This document shows, piece after piece, positions 45,534-62,033 of a stretch of 64,000 nt of DNA; within the stretch, counting starts at the first letter, position 1; the number at the start of each line of letters is the position of its first letter. A program made the position numbers and the translations under genes. Origin of the DNA: a virus; the IMG/VR virus record IMGVR_UViG_3300045988_035499. One strand, written 5' to 3'. The notes beneath the pieces are model-generated. The model saw only the letters and a program-made list of their open reading frames with translations. It did not search any database and had not been told where the DNA came from.

Positions 45534-45770
45534 ATGGAAATAACTAAAACATTGTACAATTTATTAGGTAAAGAAGTAATAGTAGAATACTCTAATAAAA
45601 AAGTTCTTACTACAATAAGTATAATAGAGAACAATGAAGGAGTAATAACCTTCGTACTATCAAATGGTGATAAAATAGCATTAGATACAATAAGTTCAAT
45701 TGTACATAATAATAGTACTACAACTATTACTTACAATGATGAAGGACTGATTGTATTTAAAATAGTCTAA
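45534..45770 (+). CDS. hypothetical protein
   Basis: ATG 45534 (MEITKTLYNLL...) within track ORF 45501..45770. Confidence 0.55.
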   Translation: MEITKTLYNLLGKEVIVEYSNKKVLTTISIIENNEGVITFVLSNGDKIALDTISSIVHNNSTTTITYNDEGLIVFKIV

Positions 45771-45779
45771 GAAAACTTC

Positions 45780-46470
45780 AAAAACAGATTTATTCGCAAA
45801 GTAATTATTCTATGAAATGCAAATTAACTTCTAGTGTTGTGAAACACACAATCCACGTTTTAATTATAATAGTATAAGTTAGGTATGCCCTTATAAAGAC
45901 TTAGGTAACGCTAAGGACTATACTATTATAATTCTCTTCTTAATGCAGCTAATATAGCAGTGACAAGCCTGTCTAATCGTCATAGAGACGTGAATGCAGA
46001 GTCAAGAAAACATAATCTTATTTACTATGCACAAGTAAATACAGATTATGAATCCACGTGGAAGGAAGATAGGTACAGTTGTAGGTTCCAGCTGAGTGCA
46101 TACCTGATTAAGCAACCAAGCGAAAGTAAGTATAGCAAAATTAAGTCGTAGCGTTACGGCTTTACTTTAACAAATGAGTCCTGAACACTCATATAACGTA
46201 CTTACTGGTCTGACACTAACCAAAAATAAGTGTCACTCTTATATCTGAAACAGTTCTATAGATATAGGTAAGATTAGAAGAACATAGGTAGAAATCCTTT
46301 TAAAGGCACTTAGGCTAAGTGTAATATAGCCTGATAATAGAGTAAGAGAAAATGAGACGAGAATATCACCGTAGCTCTTAGCATAGCTTATAGTCATATA
46401 ACGTAACAGTTGACTATATTAATGCGCTTACTCTATTATTTTTATTGCATTAACTAACAAATAAATCAAT
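45780..46470 (+). ncRNA. ORF-free structured region (strand not established)
   Basis: Long-range and local stems, including TTATAATAGTATA/TATACTATTATAA, TGACAC/GTGTCA, TATAGTCA/TGACTATA and AGAGTAAG/CTTACTCT. Has a GCGAAAG-type loop. Stops occur in all frames. Confidence 0.4.
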
Positions 46471-46473
46471 TAT

Positions 46474-46683
46474 ATGGAAACAAAAGTAGTACTAATAATC
46501 ACTGTTCATCTAATGCTGGGTATACTTGGATCTATACTTTTTCTTAAAGATATATATAGAACATACGGAGAGTTAACATTAGGCGATATATTAACGTTCT
46601 TAATAATTGCTCTTACAGGACCAATTACTCTACTAGCTTTATTAACAAAATATCTTGATAGATTTAAAATACTAAAAAAGTAA
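46474..46683 (+). CDS. small membrane protein (two TM segments)
   Basis: Intact 69-aa hydrophobic ORF. Confidence 0.6.
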   Translation: METKVVLIITVHLMLGILGSILFLKDIYRTYGELTLGDILTFLIIALTGPITLLALLTKYLDRFKILKK

Positions 46684-46719
46684 CTAATAAATCATGTAAA
46701 TTAGAATCTTATTAATAAG

Positions 46720-46850
46720 TTAATGCAGTAAATATTACTGCATCTATACTGTGAGAATCAGTATCAACTTTGTGGGGCTTATATTTAGACAATGTGTGAT
46801 AATAGTTGCAAATATTATTATATAATCTAATATTAGTGCAGATGAAATCA
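46720..46850 (+). repeat. RNA module copy A
   Basis: Hairpin ATACTG-TGAGAAT-CAGTAT, TGTGGGGC at 46771-46778, a variable segment, then GTGCAGATGAAATCA at 46836-46850. Confidence 0.5.
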
Positions 46851-46929
46851 AAGATAGTTCGTATTTGCGGTATTGCGGGATACGAACAAGTCAAGTCATT
46901 ATAAGACTGGGTAGCGTGATACAAAAAAT

Positions 46930-47069
46930 CCTAGCTGACCTGTAGCTAGGTATCTTTAAGGTGAGAATCCTTGACAATCCTGTGGGGCTCATATCTTTAG
47001 CTGTCCATTCAACTTGCGCTGTAGTTGAAATCGGCAACCAGCAAAGTATTAGTGCAGACGTTAAAATCA
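46930..47069 (+). repeat. RNA module copy B
   Basis: Hairpin AAGG-TGAGAAT-CCTT, TGTGGGGC at 46981-46988, a variable hairpin, then GTGCAGACGTTAAAATCA at 47052-47069. Confidence 0.5.
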
Positions 47070-47233
47070 GGAACAACTACATCATTCCTAACAATATTAT
47101 TAGTCATAAGCTTAACAACAATACGATGTAGCCAAGTATGCCCGTCTTTAGTATCTAACAAAACTACGTTTTGCCTGTTTTTGCTGTATTATTTTTAGCA
47201 ATTCATTCCAAATGACTAGTGTGTCATTACTAA

Positions 47234-47259
47234 TATACTTATCTGTGAAGATAGGTATA
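47234..47259 (+). repeat. RNA module hairpin, copy D (partial module)
   Basis: TATACTTATC-TGTGAA-GATAGGTATA. The same hairpin as at 48959 with one compensatory-type change. Confidence 0.45.
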
Positions 47260-47389
47260 TTAGTTGCACTCATAAGGTAGCCTTCACGTGGCGAGTGTGT
47301 AAGTAGTAGGTTTAAAAAAGAAATCCAGTTTGTTTGCCTATGAAACTAATACCTTTATTTAATAGTATTAATCAATAATATATAATAGT

Positions 47390-47662
47390 ATGAAAAAGAA
47401 AGAATTATCTAAAAGACATCAAATAATTGTATATATGAATATACATTTACTTGAATTCCTTCTAAAAAGGCACTTACTAACTAATTTTATAGATGAAGCA
47501 GTTAGACAATCAAAGTGGCATATACCAGTATATAGAGAAGAACAAAAGTATTGTTATTTTTGTGAATTCTTTTCATGGACTAAATCAAAAAGAGGTTGCA
47601 AATATTGGGCAACAATAGATTCAGATTTTGACATTTATTTATATAATCTAAAAACAGCATGA
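47390..47662 (+). CDS. hypothetical protein (paralog of 47659..47904)
   Basis: Intact 90-aa ORF. Shares the W..(S/T)K.G.KYW motif with the next ORF. Confidence 0.6.
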   Translation: MKKKELSKRHQIIVYMNIHLLEFLLKRHLLTNFIDEAVRQSKWHIPVYREEQKYCYFCEFFSWTKSKRGCKYWATIDSDFDIYLYNLKTA

Positions 47663-47904
47663 AAAAAATCAAAAGACATCGGTTCGTGATTAATCTACCT
47701 TCAACTTTACTACTTTTTCTTATTAAAGAAAGAGTATTAAGTAAATTTATATCTAATACTGTAGACTTTTTTTCTGGAAAAGGAAAAGGATTTATTTTAA
47801 TACCTGATTTAGCCGAAAGTTACTTTGAATGGGAGAGCACTAAAGAGGGTCATAAATACTGGGAAGACTTAATTAATAAATATTATGAACAATATGATGA
47901 ATAA
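47659..47904 (+). CDS. hypothetical protein
   Basis: Intact 81-aa ORF with an ATGA overlap to the upstream paralog. Confidence 0.6.
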   Translation: MKKIKRHRFVINLPSTLLLFLIKERVLSKFISNTVDFFSGKGKGFILIPDLAESYFEWESTKEGHKYWEDLINKYYEQYDE

Positions 47905-48169
47905 AATTAGTAAGTATATTCTAGTAATTATACTTATTATTGTAATAGCTTACACTATTATAAAATGCATTCCTGAACATCCTATATACAATTTTGTAGA
48001 TTTACAAATGAAGTATAAGAGGTATCTATTAGTAGATAAATATGTAGAAAACTTTAGTGATTCTTACGTATTTATACTGAAAAATCCAGTTACTAATCAA
48101 AACAATAGAGTATATGTAAAAGATTACTTATACACTAATGTATATTTCGTTGGAGATACTATTAAATAA
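47885..48169 (+). CDS. small N-terminally anchored membrane protein
   Basis: Intact 94-aa ORF with TM segment YILVIILIIVIAYTII. Confidence 0.55.
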   Translation: MNNMMNKISKYILVIILIIVIAYTIIKCIPEHPIYNFVDLQMKYKRYLLVDKYVENFSDSYVFILKNPVTNQNNRVYVKDYLYTNVYFVGDTIK

Positions 48170-48284
48170 CAATTATGAAAAGAGAAGATATCAAGCAGAA
48201 TATCTAAAAACTAACTTTGCTGACCTATTACTTAACTGGTTTGAAAAGTAATTATATTATTAACTATTAAACGTTTATCAAAAA

Positions 48285-48470
48285 ATGAAGAAAAGTTTTA
48301 TTTTACATTCCGCAGTAGACGGTACTGAACTTTTAGTGCCAAGAGACTCCTTAGACTACGCTTACGTAGATGACGATAATAACACTATTGCTGTTATTTT
48401 GTCTAACGAATTTGCGGTTACTGAATCTATGGCTGAAATAGCCGATAACTTAGAAGAAATGGAGGACTAA
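48285..48470 (+). CDS. small acidic protein
   Basis: Intact 61-aa ORF. Confidence 0.5.
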   Translation: MKKSFILHSAVDGTELLVPRDSLDYAYVDDDNNTIAVILSNEFAVTESMAEIADNLEEMED

Positions 48471-48958: not shown

Positions 48959-49102
48959 TATACTTGTCTGTGAAGATAGGTATAGTCTTCAGAAAATGAC
49001 AAACATGTGGGGCGTAAGAAATTCTATATCTATAATCCATTCTGTTTAAGTTATAGATGAAAGTAACAGAAAAGAATTTTGATCGTGCAGACGTTAAAAT
49101 CA
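48959..49102 (+). repeat. RNA module copy C
   Basis: Hairpin TATACTTGTC-TGTGAA-GATAGGTATA, TGTGGGGC at 49006-49013, variable hairpin ATCTATAA/TTATAGAT, then GTGCAGACGTTAAAATCA at 49085-49102. Confidence 0.5.
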
Positions 49103-49343
49103 TGTACTCCAATAAGGATGGTTTGACAGCTATTCCTGCTTATGAGTTAAAACTATAGTGAGAGTCAGAATATATTAGGTAAGAGAAAACAAGTGAATAC
49201 TATTTATCTTATTAACATGTTTTACAACAAAAGTGGCTAAAAGAGTTTAGCAAAAGTCTGATACTTAGACTTAAAACACAAATCCAAAAGTATCTTGGTC
49301 GTCGTCAATAATTATTAACTAACAATTTAAGATTATGTAAAAA

Positions 49344-50344: not shown

Positions 50345-50569
50345 TTTTAATTTGTTAGTAACATGGTGGATTCAGTCAACCAAAGGATTACTTAAAGCCA
50401 GAACCCTAATGGAAGCTTAGTACTACTAAGCTACTAAGCAAGAGTACAAAGGACTATACAACGGTCAACCTAGCAATAGGTCAGGAGAAGGACGTGGGCT
50501 GTCTGCGAATAAGAAGTACAAATAAGCAGAGTAATTCTTTTAAATTTAAATCATTAAATATCAAGTTAT

Positions 50570-51129: not shown

Positions 51130-51600
51130 ATGGCAGAAAAAGAAAAAATGAACATCCTCACAACTGAGGATATCAATGGAGAAAATATCCAAGAGGTTAT
51201 CTCCAATTCAAGTAAGGTAACGGAAGATATTGCAACGAAAGCAGCAGAAAAGATTGCTGAGCGTCGTAAAGAGAAACTTACGAACGACCTTATTGAAGTT
51301 GTACAGAAGTGCGAATATACAGTATCGGCTGCGGTACTGCAAGTTCGTCGCTCTAATCGTACAAACCAACGTATCAAAAGCTATCTGAAGTCTTTGTCAG
51401 AACTAGCTGAAGATGTCAAGAGCGGAAAGAAACCTGTAACAGCATGGGACAAAGAAGCTCGTGAGATGAAGAAGCAGTTTGACAAAGACTTGATTGAAAT
51501 TGGAAAGAGTATCGATGAATCTCTTCGTGAGCTGAACGAAATCTTCCCGAATTCATGGCAATGGCGATACGGAGAATTAGTTCCTGGAAACAAAAATTAA
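51130..51600 (+). CDS. hypothetical helical protein
   Basis: Intact 156-aa ORF with higher G+C. Confidence 0.7.
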   Translation: MAEKEKMNILTTEDINGENIQEVISNSSKVTEDIATKAAEKIAERRKEKLTNDLIEVVQKCEYTVSAAVLQVRRSNRTNQRIKSYLKSLSELAEDVKSGKKPVTAWDKEAREMKKQFDKDLIEIGKSIDESLRELNEIFPNSWQWRYGELVPGNKN

Positions 51601-51629
51601 TTCTCAAATTAAAAGAGACACCAGAGTTA

Positions 51630-51868
51630 GAATCTTTGAATCAATACTCTTAGTGAGGGGCGGTTGGGCTTTTGCCGGGGATACCAGCGCACACGGACCT
51701 GAATTAACAGGTCACATATGGAATCTTTGAATCAATTATGTGGTGTTACAATGAACTACTGATCATAAGTCTGAGATCGCGACAATAAGATTGTCCCGCA
51801 TTAGTAATAATGCTGAAACGCTTTAGTCGTGATATCAAGTCAGACAGATATTTGTGAATCTTTGAATC
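51630..51868 (+). repeat. three exact copies of GAATCTTTGAATC
   Basis: Copies at 51630-51642, 51721-51733 and 51856-51868, each followed by a hairpin-rich segment. Confidence 0.7.
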
Positions 51869-51960
51869 TTATAGAACTAAGTAACGAGTTTGAGAATGTT
51901 CTATATCAGATATCGTTAGTATTATCAAGATCAGTAATAGAGATTAACCATCTCAAGACC

Positions 51961-52055
51961 ATAGGGTATATGACTTTGGTCGGTCATATACCCACATTGA
52001 CTGCTAGGTCTATGAATCAGTCGTATGGACGAGGGTTTGATCCCCTCCAGCTCCA
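51961..52055 (+). ncRNA. ssrA: tmRNA-like acceptor piece (T arm plus 3' acceptor strand); 5' boundary uncertain
   Basis: GTCGTATGGAC-GAGGG-TTTGATC-CCCTC-CAGCTCC-A closely matches the 3' end of bacterial tmRNA as I recall it (GGACGAGGGUUCGA.UCCCUCCAGCUCCACCA in Bacteroidota). Preceded by an 11-bp hairpin at 51964-51993. Confidence 0.6.
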
Positions 52056-52183
52056 CAACAAGTGCTAAAGGATGTGGGTGAGACTCCCTTAAGTGCTCGC
52101 GAGATAGTAATTGCTTGAGCTGCCTGATAACGGCTAGGATAATTTAGAAGCTTCGTTCTAGCTGGCACTTTATTACATTACAA

Positions 52184-52325
52184 GGGGCTGAATGAATTTG
52201 ACAGCGACAATGTGAAGTAGAATAGGTCAATAAGCAGATAACTGGCAACACAAGTTATGTAACAGATTACACTCGCTTAGTAGCGTAAGTAATCTAACGG
52301 CTAAGCTAATGTCGTAAAAAGCTGG
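52184..52325 (+). ncRNA. ssrA: tmRNA-like coding piece (5' acceptor strand, TTTGACAGCG box, tag reading frame); 3' boundary uncertain
   Basis: GGGGCTG pairs with CAGCTCC at 52048-52054, including a G3-U pair. GGGGCTGAATGAATTTGACAGCG resembles tmRNA 5' ends. This piece lies DOWNSTREAM of the acceptor piece, so the order is permuted. Confidence 0.6.
52244..52288 (+). other. candidate tmRNA tag reading frame GNTSYVTDYTRLVA-stop
   Basis: GGC resume codon in a CTGGC context as in Bacteroidota tmRNAs. Hydrophobic LVA C-terminus. TAA at 52286-52288. Confidence 0.5.
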
Positions 52326-52400
52326 AGTAAGTAAGCTTTGCATGGTAGTGAAGCCTTGGGTTTTACCAAGAGATAAGGAGTTCGAGTCTCCTACTTACTA
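52326..52400 (+). ncRNA. tRNA-like element with a 6-nt anticodon loop and A8
   Basis: Acceptor AGTAAGT/ACTTACT, D stem GCTT/AAGC with a 12-nt loop, T arm AGGAG-TTCGAGT-CTCCT, and anticodon arm CTTGG-GTTTTA-CCAAG (loop one nt short). Abuts the tmRNA-like coding piece. Confidence 0.5.
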
Positions 52401-52436
52401 CAACTAAATTAAATTTAATCAATAAATTAATTTGAA

Positions 52437-53691: not shown

Positions 53692-53721
53692 GGATATAGG
53701 GCTTTGATCGGCCCTATATCC
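53692..53721 (+). promoter_or_regulatory. 10-bp perfect hairpin immediately upstream of the sigma-factor gene
   Basis: GGATATAGGG-N10-CCCTATATCC with no T-run. Confidence 0.4.
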
Positions 53722-53739
53722 ACTATAAAGCCCGTAGAT

Positions 53740-54300
53740 ATGACAGATGAAGAAAAACAACAGTTATTCGATCTGATCAAACAGGCGAAAGAAGGCAAGC
53801 AAATTGCCTTTACAAAGCTTTATGAAAAGTATAAGCAAACTATCTACATTACTATATATCATATAGTAAATAACAGAGACGTTGCTGATGATTTAACATC
53901 AGTTACTTTCATAAAAGCTTTTTCTAAGATTAGTAGTTATGTTAATAACATTTCATTTGAGATGTGGTTAAAAACAATAGCTATTAATAGTAGTATTGAC
54001 TATATTCGTCGTACTAAAAAAGAGAAGTCAAATTATTGGATTGACGATAGTGATAATAGTTTCCAGTTGAGTGATTCTGCAGATCATTCACCTGAAGAGA
54101 ATTATATCTTTGAAGAAACAAATTTGAAACTACAAGATGCTTTATCAAGACTTCGCTTTAAGTATAGGAATATATTAAAGTTGCGTACTGAGAATAATCT
54201 CTCTTACAAAGAGATTTCAGAGCAACTTGGTCTTAGTGAGAGTCAAGTAAAATCGACACTCAATAAGGCTAGAGAGAAACTTAAACAATTGTTAAACTAA
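53740..54300 (+). CDS. ECF-type sigma-70 family RNA polymerase sigma factor
   Basis: Region 2-like DVADDLTSVTFIKAF..FEMWLKTIAINSSIDYIRR and region 4 HTH LSYKEISEQLGLSESQVKSTLNKAREKLK. Start MTDEEKQQ lies within track ORF 53704..54300. Confidence 0.75.
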   Translation: MTDEEKQQLFDLIKQAKEGKQIAFTKLYEKYKQTIYITIYHIVNNRDVADDLTSVTFIKAFSKISSYVNNISFEMWLKTIAINSSIDYIRRTKKEKSNYWIDDSDNSFQLSDSADHSPEENYIFEETNLKLQDALSRLRFKYRNILKLRTENNLSYKEISEQLGLSESQVKSTLNKAREKLKQLLN

Positions 54301-54755: not shown

Positions 54756-56306
54756 ATGGAAAAAGAAATGACTAAAGCAGAAAGAAAAGCTGCTTTGAAA
54801 GCTGCAAAGAAAGCAGCTAAGGAAGAGAAGAAGGCTGCAATCGCTAATGGCGGTAACGATAAGCCTGAAGTTAAAACTGAGACTAAGAAAGCTGAGGATA
54901 CTCAGCAAGTAGCTGCACAGACAGTAACTAATGAAACTTCTGCAAAGAAGGGAGAGACTAAGAAGGAAGAAAAGCCTCAAGCCACCCAGAAAGAGCAGAA
55001 GAAAGAGGAAAAAGCTCCTTCTAAGAAAAAGGAACCAAAGATTCCCACAATTATTCCTGAAGATGCATCTAAGGATGTAAAGAAGGATCCTGCAGAAGTT
55101 GCAATTAAACGTGCTACTTCCTTAGTAAATGCAGTTGACAATGTAGGAATTCCTATAGGGTCTACATCCTCATCTCTTGATGGTAAAGCGATGTTATCTT
55201 TCGTAATGCAACAGCGTTATGCAAATAACAAAGAATTAGCTGAACGCTATCCAGAAATGTATGCTGACATTAATCGTAACATTGATGTTGTGACATTGTT
55301 AGCACTTGTAGATGTCCGTCAGGATTTGTTTAATCGTGGAGAGAAAGGTGAACTCGAACTTCAGATTGATGCAAATCAAATCATGCCGCTACAAAGTATG
55401 GCAGAAATGCTAGGAATTAAACTAGCTCCTGCTAAAGCTCTGCCTGGAAACGATAAACAGTTGTCTATCGATTTTACAAAATCTGAAGTACCTAATGAGC
55501 TTTCTAAAGATGCAGGTACGTCTTCTATTAAAGAAGAAAAGGTTGAGCTTGATCCGAACAAGATCACTTCTGATGATATGGTAAATTCTGCCTTAGAACA
55601 TATCATCAAAAACGGAAAGAATATGGCAGAAAACATCGTTAACATCGTAGAATGGTATCGTACTTATTGCATTACTAAAGAAGAAAATGCAGATAAGAAA
55701 CTGGCTCTTGATGACAGAACTACAGCTGAATGGCTGGAAGAGATCTTCACAAGAATTAAACCAGTTAGCTTATTACAAGGTCTTGGTCGTGCAGTATATC
55801 TGTATACTTCTCAAACAGGCTCTCCGTGTAGTGCTCATGCAATCTTGCATACACACATGTCTAAAGCTGGTTGGTCTGAAGAACAGATTGCAAGTACGCT
55901 AAAAGCTCTTATTGGAGAGAACTTCCGCTATAAGCTAAAGGATGACAATACATTGAAACCGACGGAAGACAAGGCATTAAATGCTATTGTTGGTAATCTT
56001 GGTACTGAATATATCGACAAGATATTTGCCGACTATAATCTCAGTAATGAGACTATTAACAGTGCAGAAGAGAGTAAGAAATCTGAACTTGAGAACAATC
56101 GTTCAACAGCTCGAAAAGTCTTAGGTATTCTTCGTACTAATTACTTCCCGAAGGAACATAAACCTACTGATGCAGAATTGCGAATGGTAGTAGGTCAGAT
56201 TATTAATCTGTATCGTAATCCAGCAGATCGTCTCGCAGAATACTGCGGAGAGTCAATCAGCAGTCCTAAGGAAAGCGAATTTCCAACAAGTGAAAAAAAA
56301 AATTAA
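54756..56306 (+). CDS. hypothetical abundant early protein with Lys/Ala/Glu-rich low-complexity N-terminus
   Basis: Intact 516-aa ORF with higher G+C. No motif recognised. Confidence 0.7.
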   Translation: MEKEMTKAERKAALKAAKKAAKEEKKAAIANGGNDKPEVKTETKKAEDTQQVAAQTVTNETSAKKGETKKEEKPQATQKEQKKEEKAPSKKKEPKIPTIIPEDASKDVKKDPAEVAIKRATSLVNAVDNVGIPIGSTSSSLDGKAMLSFVMQQRYANNKELAERYPEMYADINRNIDVVTLLALVDVRQDLFNRGEKGELELQIDANQIMPLQSMAEMLGIKLAPAKALPGNDKQLSIDFTKSEVPNELSKDAGTSSIKEEKVELDPNKITSDDMVNSALEHIIKNGKNMAENIVNIVEWYRTYCITKEENADKKLALDDRTTAEWLEEIFTRIKPVSLLQGLGRAVYLYTSQTGSPCSAHAILHTHMSKAGWSEEQIASTLKALIGENFRYKLKDDNTLKPTEDKALNAIVGNLGTEYIDKIFADYNLSNETINSAEESKKSELENNRSTARKVLGILRTNYFPKEHKPTDAELRMVVGQIINLYRNPADRLAEYCGESISSPKESEFPTSEKKN

Positions 56307-56373
56307 ACCCAGCTAAAATATGGCTAAGTTTAAGCTTTTGGAAGAAACTATTCTCTAAAAAATCATAATCAAT

Positions 56374-56778
56374 ATGAATTCTAGAGTATTATCGATTGTT
56401 AGCATGTTTATGGCTAGTGTTCTCATTGGCTATAACTTGCTACCAACGAACACATTACAGGCACAACCACCTGTATTTCCTTCTGTAATAGAACTACCTA
56501 GTATAGCTAGAACTATTCCACAAGAAGTGAAGAAGTCTGTGCAAGAGATAGATGTTGAAATAGATCTATCTACTAACGAAGTATCTGTAAAAGGAACAAC
56601 AGACGCAATTGTGAATGTTAAGACTACTAATGAGCCAAAACCTATAGTAAAATATAAAACTATAGTAAAAGAGGTAGAGGTCAAATCTACTGGATATCCA
56701 TATGTAAAAAGTGTGGGTAAAGTTCCAGAAGGTACTACACCTATTTCTCCATTAAAAACTATTAGTAGTAATGAGTAA
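56374..56778 (+). CDS. secreted or membrane-anchored hypothetical protein
   Basis: 134-aa ORF with an N-terminal hydrophobic signal-like segment. Confidence 0.6.
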   Translation: MNSRVLSIVSMFMASVLIGYNLLPTNTLQAQPPVFPSVIELPSIARTIPQEVKKSVQEIDVEIDLSTNEVSVKGTTDAIVNVKTTNEPKPIVKYKTIVKEVEVKSTGYPYVKSVGKVPEGTTPISPLKTISSNE

Positions 56779-57199
56779 TAAGAATCGCATTATTCTTAAG
56801 CAAATGGTTAGATTATCTACCATTTTAGCTGACCTTATATCTGCAAAACGTAGTATCAATAAGGTTCAAGAACAAGCAGCTTATTTCATTGTACAAGGTG
56901 AAAGTTCTAATTTCTTAGAGGTTAGATTAAAGGCTGCAGAAGCAGATTGCTTATGCTTAGCTCAGTACTTACGTTTGTCTGTAAGTAATTGTTGTAGTAA
57001 ATTGGATGGTTTTGATCCTAGTAGAATGGATCCGCTCGAGTATATCAGTAGTAATGAAATACGAAATAGATGCGCAACTATTTGTCGAGGTACTAAAGAA
57101 ATAGCTATTATTAATTTAGTAACAGGAGAAGTTCAACAGATAGAACCAGATTTACAAAAAAATACGGCTGAAGAGAAAAGTCCTGCGGAAAAAAGTTAA
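56771..57199 (+). CDS. hypothetical protein
   Basis: Intact 142-aa ORF. Confidence 0.6.
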   Translation: MSNKNRIILKQMVRLSTILADLISAKRSINKVQEQAAYFIVQGESSNFLEVRLKAAEADCLCLAQYLRLSVSNCCSKLDGFDPSRMDPLEYISSNEIRNRCATICRGTKEIAIINLVTGEVQQIEPDLQKNTAEEKSPAEKS

Positions 57200-59295
57200 C
57201 AGTAATAGCCGCAATATAAATACTATAATTATACTGTAGTTCGAGAGGAGTAAAACTGTAGCGTAAATCACTCCGGTAGTTATAATTGGGAAGTCATACC
57301 GCTACGTCAGGAAGTTTGTGTTCATTAACGCATAGTCCGAAATAGACAGAATCCGAGAATATGTTAGCAGCTACAACTGTGAGATACCCAAAAGGTAGGA
57401 TACTAGCTTACATACTTGAAAACTATGTAAGAGGAGGTTAGAGTGTACAACCTTCATTAGGCATTGAGAACCGTTTTGGTGAATGCTAAAGACTCGTAGG
57501 AGGAACAATTTAATCCAAATACAAACAGTACAAGGGGAACGAAATCCTCTATAATTACTCGTGTTAGACTATCACAGTCAGAATCAAGTAGGAGTATAAA
57601 CAACGATGACGCAATAGGGACAATCGGGTTCCTAGCCTTAGAATCTTTGAATCAGCTCCTTTGGAAAGAGCAGGCGAAACATTCTAAAAAACTAGGTAAT
57701 TGCTACCAACCTGCGGGGTCCAAACTCGCAGTAGAACAAAATCGTGTAGCCGCGCGAGCTGATTGCGAAGACGGACAAAAGGGCTAATCTACAGTGTTCA
57801 GTACACATCAGCTGTGATGCAATATAATAAACATTGGAACTTGTACTTATGAAGGTAGATAAAACAACTGATACTAATGTAAGGGTAACCGTGTTATGGT
57901 ACATACTTATACAAAGTAAGGATATGAAAGCTGGAAACGCAATGATCCGAATGAGTGAAGCGAGAGCGGAACCATGACATTCGACTGATTATCGTGGAGC
58001 AGGAGCCAATCCTGTGCATTATCGTAAATAGTGTGCTGCAAAAGAACTTACGTATAAGGAATGAGGTATATGAGATTGATACCGCCTTTCAAGTCTGAAG
58101 TGACTCACGTGCTTAGTCGTTCGTGTGAGTATAATTGAATGAGGAATGACTGGACAAAGAATGTCCATGCGGTTTGAGGGCGCTATAACCCTGATTCTAA
58201 GAGGATAGAGACCTTTAGCAAGTCTTAATTAATTATCCAGAAATGTATTGAGGTGAAGCTTAGAGAACACCTTCTAAAAAACAGCAGAGCTTATACGTTT
58301 TAAGATATGTAAACGTCTTTGTTTAAGATATAAACTCAACCAGAGTTGAAGATTAAACATCGTAGTAACTAAAAAACTAACAAAGTAATAAGACCTATAC
58401 AGGATGCTATGAGGATAGCATCTCATAACCAGCTGATATGTTTAAAGTATGTGAGGATATACTTTATTAACTGATGTACTTATGCCTAATAGAATGGGCT
58501 ATTGGAAAAATGTATTCTAAATTGTTTAACATTTAATAATTGGGAAGTTCAATGATAGGTCAGACGCATAGCAGCTTACGTTGTATGTAAGCAATGAAGA
58601 GTCCAAGTCACCCCGACTGCCAACCGTTACGCTGACATAGACACTCGTAAAGTATATAGCAGCAACTATATATGTACTGAGAACGCTGAATCCGAAAAGT
58701 AAGCCTACACACTAATAAGGTCGTTATTAGTCGAGCAATGCTAATATGCAGAGCGCTAGTAGAAAGGGAGCTAAGTAAGATGATAGGTGGAAATCCTAGT
58801 ATTCGTGCAGTATAAACAACAAATCCTATGCATGGTATGAGTGGGTCATGCTATAAGCAATGAGCTCATGAGTTTGGTAACGCTTAGAATAAAGCGACCG
58901 TTATTCAATAGAATATCGACAATATACGGAAATGCCTTGTAGGTCTATCGTAGACTGATGATAAGCGCTGTTTATAATGCAACTAATCGCGTTATGAACT
59001 TACGTTGAGAGGTGCATTAAGCATCGTAAAAGTTGAATCTTAATCGTCGACACGGGACGTTAAAACCATAAATATCAGAAATTATCAGAAGTAAAATTCA
59101 CAGAATTTTTCTCATAAATTTAACCGTTTATTTTCAGCATGCCGAGTAGATTATGTGATTGAGTTCACTACTGACATTATTTCAGTAACATAAATAATCG
59201 AAAAGGCGGAGAGCATTAACACAGTATTAATTAAAGAATAAACCAAATGGTTCGTATTGGTATATCAAGTACGGACTCAGAAAGGAAACATTTGT
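57200..59295 (+). ncRNA. ~2.1 kb ORF-free, G+C-enriched, hairpin-dense block (one or more large structured RNAs; strand assumed)
   Basis: TAA and TAG are frequent in all three plus frames that I sampled. Many GNRA-type loops (GCGAAAC, TCCGAAAT, TCCGAAAAG, TGGAAAC). Internal repeat ATAATTGGGAAGT at about 57284 and 58546. Confidence 0.5.
57641..57653 (+). repeat. fourth exact copy of GAATCTTTGAATC
   Basis: Identical 13-mer inside the 2.1 kb ORF-free block. Confidence 0.7.
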
Positions 59296-59934
59296 ATGGA
59301 AAATAATAATTCTATTGGAGTAACTGTAGGTATCGGTACTCCATCAATTGAGAGTCAAGTCATGGCTCGGTATCGTCAGACTGCAAAGCAGTACGGTCGT
59401 TATTTTGGAGAGCAGATTTTTACAGTGATCTCTACAAATCCTGATCTTAAATGGAAACAGGATGTACTTGATAATAAAAATACATTACGGCAAGAAGTAC
59501 GTGTATTCATTATCAAGCCTATTGATATAACAGGTGTAGAATTATTAGCTAAAGATCTTGATGGTCAGCCAAAGATTGTCTTGAATCCGAAAGCTAACGA
59601 TCCTAACCTTGTATTCCCGTTAGTAGCTCCTGAGTTTACGAAAGCAAACCGGGCAACTGTAACGGAATGTATTGAACGTATTGGTAAGGCTGGTAGTAAG
59701 CCAATGTTCTTCTCTGCAGAGGAATTGCCTACTCTTAATGAGTTGCTAAAATTGCATAATTTTGGTGTTGTCAATTTCTACGAAGAACAGTCTCGTAAGT
59801 ATATGAAACTTTCAGAAACTGTACGGGATATGATTGAACAAGGTGAACGCGCTCAGATCGAATATGCACGGCAGTGTGGAGTAGATCAGAACGAAACTGA
59901 AGTTCACGTTCAAGTGAAACTTGAAGAAGCGTAA
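59296..59934 (+). CDS. hypothetical protein
   Basis: ATG 59296 (MENNNSIGV...) within track ORF 59257..59934. Confidence 0.65.
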   Translation: MENNNSIGVTVGIGTPSIESQVMARYRQTAKQYGRYFGEQIFTVISTNPDLKWKQDVLDNKNTLRQEVRVFIIKPIDITGVELLAKDLDGQPKIVLNPKANDPNLVFPLVAPEFTKANRATVTECIERIGKAGSKPMFFSAEELPTLNELLKLHNFGVVNFYEEQSRKYMKLSETVRDMIEQGERAQIEYARQCGVDQNETEVHVQVKLEEA

Positions 59935-61942: not shown

Positions 61943-62013
61943 TCCTATATAGCTCAGTTGGTAGAGCCGCTAGTAATAGTGTGATTGCGCTGGTTCGAGT
62001 CCAGCTATAGGAT
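61943..62013 (+). ncRNA. tRNA-like element lacking a canonical anticodon arm
   Basis: Perfect acceptor TCCTATA/TATAGGA, D arm TAGCTCAGTTGGTAGAGC and T arm GCTGG-TTCGAGT-CCAGC. The 21 nt between them (CGCTAGTAATAGTGTGATTGC) cannot form a 5-bp stem with a 7-nt loop. Confidence 0.5.
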
Positions 62014-62033
62014 CTAATTTTAACTTTATTAAT

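Follow-up and report, generated by a model that had tools for sequence, protein, structure and literature searches.

A conserved 2.1-kb non-coding block of Suoliviridae phages as a candidate locus for a giant structured RNA

Few large ornate non-coding RNAs are known; the functions of those that are, among them GOLLD, ROOL and OLE, have been a long-standing puzzle. GOLLD is roughly 0.8 kb and ROOL about 0.6 kb in length, and recent cryo-EM work has revealed that some of the large ornate RNAs build RNA-only cages. GOLLD and ROOL are reported to form RNA-only multimeric assemblies (PMC12286853). The block of crAss-like phage DNA described here resembles GOLLD in being a candidate for a very large phage-borne non-coding RNA, in its situation close to tRNA genes and to further RNAs of the phage, and in being recognised through conservation and covariation, with multiple hairpins and pseudoknots. 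ROOL (Rumen-Originating, Ornate, Large) offers a similar parallel, as a gut- or rumen-associated large ornate RNA that is often encoded in phages or prophages near tRNAs. This shared setting, phage-borne and near tRNAs, is contextual and not diagnostic. The block differs from both in having no match to an Rfam model (E-value ≤ 10 in the case of GOLLD) and in its length of about 2.1 kb. It further differs from GOLLD in that its host phages are Crassvirales of Bacteroidota, and in a lower paired fraction that is not accompanied by a signal of thermodynamic stability.

The candidate giant ncRNA locus is a non-coding block at 57200-59295 of the + strand in the 64-kb stretch of viral DNA analysed, referred to here as the window. 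The source is a crAss-like gut phage of the Suoliviridae (delta crAss-like), a family uncultured as of a 2023 review. As described in a first-pass annotation of the window, the block is free of genes and lies between genes, starting directly after the stop codon of an upstream gene for 142 aa (56771-57199) and reaching to the ATG of a downstream gene for 212 aa (59296-59934). The upstream gene is a complete ORF with a conserved stop and its protein has no match in Pfam, PHROG or NCBIfam. The downstream gene has its own initiation region; its protein has 206 homologues, all of them annotated as hypothetical and none with a Pfam domain, and its AF2 model (pLDDT 41.7) is unusable. Searches of the neighbouring proteins against Pfam, PHROG, NCBIfam and the PDB have revealed no homology other than that of an ECF sigma factor encoded 3 kb upstream. 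A homologous neighbour gene in cr6_1 has an in-frame stop.

The block is located at the boundary of the early and replication modules, and the flanking genes are all on the + strand. Within 13 kb the same strand carries three Hatchet ribozymes, RAGATH-9, a tmRNA-like gene (51963-52379) and tRNA genes (60578 and 61943). These phages are thus unusually rich in RNA, with ribozymes, tmRNA, tRNAs and the block arranged on one strand. Whether the block is the longest non-coding stretch of the window, as had been stated, depends on the criterion used: with a cut-off of 100 aa between stops the region 44706-48448 is longer, and this region contains several small + strand ORFs and the three Hatchet ribozymes. 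The reported enrichment in G+C is modest, since the block has 37.8% against a window mean of about 34% and the immediate flanks range from 33 to 40%; the excess over the window mean holds and the marked rise over the flanks does not.

The DNA of the block is non-coding. The longest annotated ORF inside it is the 70-aa minus-strand frame noticed at first pass (57692-57904), and the longest stop-to-stop frame under the standard code is 98 aa. No long frame appears in the block when TAG, TGA or TAA alone is read through (maximum 193 aa); TAA, TAG and TGA are mixed in all six frames, in agreement with the earlier view that the block is not an artefact of recoding. The period-3 power of substitutions is 0.5, as against 32.8 and 116 in the two flanking genes, so that the block has neither the long open frame nor the three-base periodicity of a protein gene. 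Many of the largest insertions in the relatives are not multiples of three. A few conserved AUGs follow an AGGA-like sequence (for example 57606, 58070 and 58780), and the mini-ORFs in the block vary from 1 to 55 codons, their amino-acid changes coinciding with compensatory changes in stems. Conserved mini-ORFs were rejected because the lengths are not kept and the substitutions track RNA pairing.

Each of the 86 full-length Loutivirinae loci that were fetched has a homologue of 2.0-2.2 kb in the corresponding position. The length ranges from 2015 to 2224 nt across all the full-length loci, with no gene or mobile element inserted. Collinear homologues have been identified in Bearivirinae, Oafivirinae and Uncouvirinae, with profile matches in four loci of these other subfamilies, and the spacing of the conserved cores is identical between subfamilies. 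Position, orientation, internal order and a length near 2.1 kb are kept in at least four subfamilies, and no insertion, loss or shuffling of modules has been seen in the block among about 90 genomes. The conservation of the block is close to that of the neighbouring genes, and the purifying selection on it is of about the same strength. Conservation is continuous, no window of 100 nt or more drifting freely, and less conserved, weakly structured spacers occur around 57800, 57950, 58350-58450 and 59060-59140. Scans with single proteins for wider diversity yielded only near-identical Oafivirinae and Uncouvirinae loci; the multi-subfamily alignment of a 516-aa gene was too divergent to seed such a scan.

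Covariation in related phages, which the first-pass annotation had proposed as a check, is extensive and includes two pseudoknots. An unbiased helix scan detected 18 helices with three or more compensatory pairs, as against none in the parallel-strand control. The consensus structure of 26 sequences comprises 403 pairs, 95.6% of them canonical, and 115 of the pairs covary, compared with 2-7 in slid controls. The minimum free energy of the consensus has z < -3 relative to column-shuffled alignments in 18 of the 24 windows. Counts of pairs in the domain of model R1, the pseudoknots PK1 and PK2 and domain B, described below, agree with this. On the + strand, compensatory mutations have preserved short helices by the dozen and two or more pseudoknots. 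About 39% of the consensus columns are paired, so that the fold is more open than is usual among large structured RNAs. G-U cells outnumber A-C cells by 2:1 (76 to 37; 10 helices to 3), which favours the + strand as the one that folds.

Energies of single sequences give a different picture. Against dinucleotide shuffles, z is +0.83 at 57200-57499 and +0.88 at 58530-58829, and the mean over 19 windows (-0.76) is less negative than that of the coding flanks. A folding z-score like that of shuffled controls had been put forward at first pass as evidence against a structured RNA, and on folding energy such a score is what was obtained; it is uninformative here, because the structure is highly significant at the level of the alignment. 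The block thus has compensatory substitutions beyond phylogenetic and positional controls, as expected of structured RNAs in general, without the thermodynamic stability.

Some of the structural details read from the single sequence did not survive the comparison. The strings quoted as stems with GNRA-like loops (GGCGAAAC, GTCCGAAATAG, ATCCGAAAAG, CTGGAAACG and TTGGAAAGAG) are present, but they are mostly not hairpin loops in the conserved fold, and not one GNRA tetraloop occurs among the 52 hairpin loops of the consensus structure from 26 sequences. The motifs said to be shared by two sub-regions are weakly related at best (58452-58601 with 57280-57295, E = 0.23 in a windowed profile self-search), and the first copy of ATAATTGGGAAGT is not conserved in the relatives. 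The 13-mer GAATCTTTGAATC does occur as one exact copy in the block (57641-57653), and four copies are present in the 64-kb window where 0.13 is expected. The copy in the block is an insertion in a variable hairpin of the + strand and is confined to the source phage and its closest relative, L009.

All the elements that make up the block lie on the + strand. It begins with a terminal hairpin (57200-08:57229-36, within 57200-57236) of 8 bp, all canonical and with three covarying pairs, whose 20-nt loop contains AAATACTATAAT. Two covarying hairpins follow in 57276-57340 (57276-79:57302-05 with three covarying pairs and 57307-21:57328-40 with seven), where the variants GGUAG/CUACG, GGCAG/CUGCG, GGUGG/CCACG and GGCGG/CCGCG are seen. 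The H-type pseudoknot PK1 (57433-57532) surrounds an invariant TGAGAACCGT core and is formed by the hairpin 57433-37:57451-55, the loop of which (57444-48) pairs with 57528-32. In PK1 98.6% of the cells are paired and 7 of the 10 pairs are compensatory; its covariation score is 0.634, compared with 0.228 in shuffled alignments (0 of 500 reach it) and at most 0.12 in slid ones. The five-helix domain at 57532-57678, for which the model R1 was built, has the best structure-conservation signal of the block, with a consensus-fold z of -11 to -13. Its 32 pairs are 96.9% paired against 82.9% on shuffling (0 of 500), and 20 of them are compensatory, where slid controls give 1-3. The R1 model also recovers the homologues of Bearivirinae and Uncouvirinae.

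The central part of the block contains a domain of 160 nt (57902-58063) with a composite long closing stem (57902-10:58054-63, 57916-20:58047-51 and 57929-31:58035-37), which is 100% canonical with one covarying pair per segment; part of this domain is deleted in one clade. The most conserved core, at 58050-58200, has about 95% column identity and includes the hairpin 58115-24:58142-51. A second H-type pseudoknot, PK2 (58484-58518), is formed by the hairpin 58484-87:58496-99 and by pairing of its loop (58491-95) with 58514-18. All of its 126 cells are paired, 6 of the 9 pairs are compensatory and its score is reached by none of 500 shuffles; pairing is kept in each of eight distinct sequence variants. 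Domain B (58540-58700), with GGGAAGUUCAAUG, CACCCCGACUGCCAACCG and GAGAACGCUGA, is present in all the subfamilies sampled (nhmmer E-values of 1e-20 to 1e-5 in the other subfamilies), and all eight pairs of its hairpin 58652-59:58666-73 are compensatory, including across subfamilies.

The 3' domain (58784-59044, consensus-fold z of -8 to -11) consists of the hairpins 58784-87:58795-98 with a UGGAAAU loop, 58836-42:58864-70, 58970-80:58989-99 and 59016-26:59034-44, which have 2, 5, 6 and 5 covarying pairs respectively. It is followed by an A+T-rich segment with little structure (59060-59140) that carries two TATCAGA(A/G) direct repeats one helical turn apart (59075-59095) and that may possibly contain the end of the RNA and the promoter of the next operon. 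The last segment, 59145-59295, is the conserved leader of the next gene, with a AGUAGAUUAUGUGAUUGA box, the hairpin 59169-74:59182-87 and five covarying pairs. The conserved boxes at the 5' and 3' ends of the block do not recur elsewhere in the 64-kb window.

A motif of about 36 nt occurs twice. The first copy (57556-57608, + strand) consists of UUCGUAU, a stem with an AUCAA-type loop and then GAnUCAAAAAGGAA, and is followed by the conserved AUG at 57606, which opens a variable mini-ORF of 3-55 codons (median 10). The second (59250-59286, + strand) lies directly upstream of the ATG at 59296. R1 has a second match at the leader of the next gene in the source phage, in four loci of other subfamilies and in 15 of the 16 Loutivirinae loci; no further match occurs in 233 kb. 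A windowed profile self-search and a repeat finder gave otherwise only chance-level matches for internal duplication or tandem modules; the duplication of the 36-nt motif was confirmed by a covariance model. An internal copy of a hairpin-plus-AAGGA element together with one before the next start codon suggests a role in binding or titration, since a single factor that binds both copies would be expected to give such an arrangement. On this speculative proposal, RNA of the block would bind or titrate a factor that recognises the translation-initiation region of the next gene. The T4 operators of RegA, gp32 and gp43 are similar in having a hairpin and purine-rich element at the start codon that is repeated elsewhere on the transcript, but differ in that no binding protein is known for the element of the block. 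The motif accounts for only about 36 nt of the 2.1 kb conserved and so cannot explain the whole block.

Comparison with described RNA families has revealed no relative. A cmscan with Rfam 15 at gathering score found nothing in the block, and at E ≤ 10 with permissive filters gave only three chance-level matches (mir-9412, DsrA and PreQ1); on six homologous loci Rfam detected tRNAs only. The family-model search proposed at first pass was thus negative for GOLLD, ROOL, HEARO, OLE, raiA, group I and II introns and RNase P, and covariance models of rRNA, RNase P, tmRNA, 6S and SRP do not match. Having no match at E ≤ 10, the block is not GOLLD, ROOL, HEARO, OLE, raiA, an intron, RNase P or tmRNA. 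A published description was not found in full-text literature searches. The suggestion that the block encodes large or multiple structured RNAs, possibly of a new class, is supported by the fixed position and length, the covariation and the lack of a coding signature; in view of the Rfam result, a new class is the applicable part of it. These data are best read as a very large phage ncRNA of a new class, present as one RNA or as a fixed array. The block is probably an RNA gene or a tightly linked cluster of RNA genes specific to the Suoliviridae, and would act as folded RNA and not as DNA.

Most likely the block corresponds to a single RNA of very large size, about 1.9-2.1 kb, as the fixed length, the same spacing of cores and the lack of internal repeats and of terminator-like sites suggest. 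The main rival, which we regard as unlikely, is an array made up of several separate ncRNAs of small or medium size, co-transcribed and processed, like the Hatchet, RAGATH, tmRNA and tRNA cluster upstream. The well-supported helices are all local, none with covariation support spanning more than about 160 nt, and form closed domains of 35-160 nt, so that the status as a single molecule is unproven. A closing helix of kilobase range between the 5' and 3' ends (57300-03:59205-08) was rejected; it has some covariation, which does not surpass that of the control for long-range pairs, and rivals a better-supported local hairpin. The weak spacers, the low thermodynamic stability and paired fraction, and the many small RNAs that the phage strings along the same strand also agree with an array, and the block could be an RNA island similar to the small phage RNA clusters (Hatchet, RAGATH, tRNA and phage tmRNA). 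In contrast to those clusters, no unit of the block matches a known family, repeats and ribozyme or tRNA punctuation are lacking, and length and order are fixed across subfamilies. The constancy of total length, order and spacing in four subfamilies, the absence of module changes and the continuous conservation stand against independent units. No intrinsic terminator was found in the block (1.8 expected), sigma-70-like promoters are at chance level, and promoter-like boxes or processing motifs do not recur.

The block could alternatively act in cis as a very long leader of the replication-gene operon that lies downstream, with translational operators, antitermination or stability elements that time the middle genes. 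Structured and conserved sequence does run unbroken to the start codon at 59296 with no terminator in between, a paralogue of the initiation-region motif lies within the block, and the block is situated exactly where early genes give way to replication genes. However, 2.1 kb far exceeds any known bacterial or phage leader, the most conserved cores (58050-58200) are far from the gene, the A+T-rich segment with its direct repeats resembles a separate promoter region, and no riboswitch, T-box or leader family of Rfam matches. This explanation is therefore rather improbable, and a role as a simple cis-regulator is considered unlikely.

A function at the level of DNA, such as a replication origin, a packaging site, or a cluster of hairpin-type promoters or of protein-binding sites, would agree with the adjoining replication module, the many short inverted repeats, the spacing of the TATCAGA repeats and the unremarkable stability of the RNA. 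The two pseudoknots supported by covariation, however, cannot form in cruciforms of duplex DNA, and the tolerance of G-U over A-C points to one specific strand. Protein-binding palindromes keep their sequence, whereas the stems of the block change sequence and keep pairing. The GC-skew minimum and the switch of gene strand lie near 44 kb, 13 kb from the block, and an origin in the block was rejected on this ground. We consider such a function highly improbable.

An overlooked protein gene, small-peptide genes, a pseudogene, a self-splicing intron or another mobile element is barely credible: some crAss-like phages are reported in the literature to recode TAG or TGA and to carry many introns, and the in-frame stop in cr6_1 and the few conserved AUGs could be read in the same way, but the frames, periodicity and insertions described above speak against coding, a pseudogene would not stay as conserved as this, no group I or II intron model matches and no ORF lies within the block, and the flanking ORFs are complete, encode different proteins and have their own stop and start.

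Returning to the RNA gene as the preferred reading, the block is probably read from left to right, either together with the early regulatory genes or directly after them, and before the replication genes. The invariant A-rich unpaired segments may make tertiary contacts or bind protein, and by analogy with GOLLD and ROOL the RNA could serve as a scaffold or ribonucleoprotein. More tentatively, one RNA of about 2 kb might fold into a pseudoknotted three-dimensional machine or multimeric assembly, and would then be the largest non-ribosomal structured RNA known from a virus or bacterium; possible roles would include capture of the ribosome or of translation factors through the mimic of the initiation region, or that of a scaffold or decoy against host defence. 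The block would extend the large ornate RNAs by a new family that has no sequence relationship to them and is about 2.5 times the size of GOLLD. Since these phages have retained it throughout their family's history, although it takes up 2% of the genome, it must have an important role. With the alignment, the domain models and both pseudoknots, it can be tested directly without a cultured host.

Bacterial genomes (596 Gb) were also scanned with the short pattern GGAAGTTCAATGRYAG. Among the 120 loci listed, one, which lies on a cr6-like contig of a MAG, is truly homologous, and the rest are chance matches. One homologue of a neighbouring gene occurs on at least 1000 assembled contigs.

The gene-free region of about 2.1 kb at 57200-59295 on the plus strand (the block) extends from the stop of a 142-aa gene (56771-57199) to the ATG (59296) of a 212-aa gene (59296-59934), and has been identified by sequence comparison as a real, strongly selected and structured non-coding element of a new family. 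Its best DNA matches are found in uncultured crAss-like phages of the family Suoliviridae, subfamily Loutivirinae (cr53_1, cr52_1, cr109_1, cr113_1, cr4_1, cr56_1 and cr60_1), with 70-76% identity along almost all of the 2.1 kb; according to a 2023 review, Suoliviridae had no cultured member at that time. Genes of the window are encoded on the minus strand to the left of ~43.5 kb and on the plus strand to the right of ~44.1 kb, and the block lies in the plus-strand arm. The divergent switch at ~43500-44100 coincides with the cumulative GC-skew minimum and is likely to be a replication origin or a divergent early promoter region. An ECF-type sigma factor gene (53704-54297) and then several genes without assigned function precede the block, and in the relatives tRNAs and a DNA polymerase gene come after it.

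A scan of IMG/VR with the upstream gene yielded 80 loci, which were combined with eight GenBank loci. A homologue of the block, 2015-2224 nt long, is situated directly 3' of the upstream gene in 86/86 full-length loci, none of which shows a gene, intron or mobile element interrupting it. An unannotated gap of ~2.0-2.2 kb occupies the same place in Bearivirinae (cr6_1), Oafivirinae (cr131_1) and Uncouvirinae (cr125_1 and cr115_1). The Loutivirinae alignment profile matches these gaps collinearly, at almost unchanged spacing (best E-value 2e-26), at a distance where the upstream 516-aa protein shares just 21-22% identity. Conservation is unbroken along the length of the block, invariant runs of 10-25 nt being interleaved with variable stems and insertion hot-spots. 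The cr109-like clade (loci L016, L005, L007, L032, L019 and L029) carries an insertion of ~70 nt directly 3' of the pseudoknot PK1 (equivalent to window position ~57530), and further clade-specific insertions of 20-50 nt fall at about ten fixed hot-spots, as expected of peripheral stem-loops in a large RNA.

The block is non-coding. The longest standard-code frame is 98 aa and reading through any single stop codon opens none, in agreement with the first-pass annotation, which had described the block as ORF-free. It had also been called the longest non-coding stretch of the window; by a crude criterion the ORF-poor segment at 44.7-48.4 kb, which holds small plus-strand ORFs and three Hatchet ribozymes, exceeds it. 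The reported G+C enrichment over the surroundings exists (37.8%) and is modest. For the block and its two flanking genes alike, sequences from one set of 26 genomes, made non-redundant at <97% identity (median pairwise identity 63%), were extracted and aligned. The 3-base periodicity of substitutions reaches 32.8 and 116 times the median power in the flanking genes and is lacking in the block (0.5). Mean column variability is lower in the block (0.198) than in these genes (0.215 and 0.285), so that the constraint on it is no weaker than on the adjacent genes. In the relatives, many of the largest insertions have lengths not divisible by three. Where an AUG is conserved, it opens nothing more than a mini-ORF whose length varies (1-55 codons) and whose amino-acid changes fall together with compensatory stem changes.

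A function of the block as RNA is well supported by covariation. A MAFFT alignment made without structural information was scanned, across every pair of columns, for runs of at least 4 pairs with at least 85% canonical pairing. The plus strand gave 18 helices containing three or more pairs whose two sides had both changed in two or more sequences, against 0 in a physically meaningless parallel-direction control, and the minus strand gave 10 against 1. The RNAalifold consensus of the 26 sequences has 403 pairs (95.6% canonical); compensatory change affects 115 of them, compared to 2-7 with partners slid by 1-3 columns, and 21 helices contain three or more covarying pairs each. Consensus folding energy is below z = -3 relative to column-shuffled alignments in 18/24 windows and reaches -13 at 57500-57760. 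In the five-helix domain at 57532-57678, specified by hand for a pair-count test, 96.9% of cells are paired versus 82.9% when shuffled (0/500), with 20/32 compensatory pairs versus 1-3 when slid. All 8 pairs of the hairpin 58652-58673 are compensatory, between subfamilies as well.

Two H-type pseudoknots are supported on the plus strand, PK1 (hairpin 57433-37:57451-55, loop pairing with 57528-32; 98.6% paired) and PK2 (hairpin 58484-87:58496-99, loop pairing with 58514-18; 100% of 126 cells, eight sequence variants). They favour RNA over duplex-DNA cruciforms. In the strand-blind helices G-U cells outnumber A-C cells (76 vs 37), which points to the plus strand, that of all neighbouring genes.

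Several observations weigh against this reading. The single-sequence minimum free energy is no better than that of dinucleotide shuffles (z +0.83 and +0.88); over windows of the block the mean z is -0.76, and the coding flanks are more negative on average. The start of a 134-aa gene (56300-56599, plus strand) is far stabler than shuffled sequence (z -4.35, 0/200 shuffles as good). The GNRA-like loops of the first-pass annotation exist as strings, but 0/52 hairpin loops of the conserved fold are GNRA tetraloops, and the likeness of 57284-57400 to 58546-58710 is neither significant nor conserved. Base pairs involve only ~39% of the consensus positions and the stems are short; the fold is thus an open chain of small helices with invariant A-rich single strands between them. 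The conservation of these strands must serve a non-Watson-Crick role, for instance in tertiary contacts or in binding a protein or the ribosome. The largest closed domains backed by covariation span ~90-160 nt, and the sole kb-range helix candidate (57300-03:59205-08) is weak. No promoter, terminator or recurring box marking the block ends was found in the window. Since length, order and spacing are invariant, a single ~2 kb RNA would be the most economical, if unproven, reading, over a fixed array or a giant leader.

No family of Rfam 15 matches the block at E<=10, and none matches its homologues in six loci at gathering score. GOLLD, ROOL, HEARO, OLE and raiA are excluded on this ground, as are group I and II introns, RNase P, tmRNA and riboswitches, and the earlier suggestion of a new class is supported. 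Like GOLLD and ROOL, the block is large, phage-borne, near tRNAs and other phage RNAs, and recognisable solely through conservation and covariation; unlike them, it is ~2.1 kb long, belongs to another phage group and has an open, thermodynamically unremarkable fold. Full-text literature searches gave no description of it, and none is given in the crAss-like comparative genomics paper, a Crassvirales review, a survey of structured RNAs in microbiomes or a paper on UG/Abi reverse transcriptases.

A covariance model (R1) built on 57532-57678 recovers the expected homologues in other subfamilies. The window, 15/16 Loutivirinae loci and four other-subfamily loci each give a second, weaker match at the 3' boundary of the block, where it overlaps the region in which the following gene is initiated; 233 kb of sequence gave no matches beyond these two sites. 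The common part of ~36 nt consists of UUCGUAU, a 4-bp stem with an AUCAA-type loop and GAnUCAAAAAGGAA, and occurs exactly twice in the 64-kb window. One copy sits 8-10 nt ahead of the start codon at 59296, and after the other (57556-57596) comes a conserved AUG, with a stop almost at once behind it. The two copies are probably sites for one factor, a ribosome or protein, and the duplication would be the only concrete lead on function. Our best guess is that the block may serve as a scaffold or ribonucleoprotein RNA, which might additionally carry an element that mimics the initiation region of the gene downstream. Two TATCAGA(A/G) direct repeats ~11 nt apart (59075-59095), conserved in relatives, lie in the A+T-rich segment that separates the structured block from the next gene's leader and may be a protein-binding site or promoter.

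Other RNAs are interspersed among small early ORFs on the same strand, namely the three Hatchet self-cleaving ribozymes (46742-46853, 46952-47072 and 48985-49105; 85-96 bits, gathering score 51) and a RAGATH-9 RNA (50372-50541; 134 bits). A second gene-free stretch of ~0.84 kb (51600-52436, plus strand) has a phage tmRNA-like gene, a permuted tmRNA by ARAGORN (51963-52379, plus strand; tag GNTSYVTDYTRLVA), which scores 45.5 bits with Rfam tmRNA_permuted, slightly below the gathering score of 47; SsrA is annotated at this spot in relatives. The 13-mer GAATCTTTGAATC has four copies in the window against 0.13 expected. Three (51630-51642, 51721-51733 and 51856-51868) closely precede the tmRNA-like gene at spacings of 91 and 135 nt, in the area of a weak RAGATH-20 match (E 0.008). 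The fourth (57641-57653), noted earlier in the block, is indeed there, inserted into a variable hairpin, the insertion being limited to the window phage and its nearest relative. The 13-mer may represent a small repeat, either regulatory or mobile.

Unusual tRNA-like genes are found at 52330-52401 and 61943-62014 (plus strand) and 38025-38128 (minus strand). ARAGORN reports two tRNA-??? genes with abnormal anticodon loops ('tt' and 'aa'), and Rfam tRNA matches the gene at 61943 (45 bits) and 104 nt of the minus strand at 38025 (34 bits). They could be suppressor or intron-containing tRNAs, because stop-codon recoding occurs in this phage group. The annotated CDS upstream of the block homologue in cr6_1 (locus L089, 3295-3765) has an in-frame stop under translation table 11, consistent with stop-codon reassignment in that phage.
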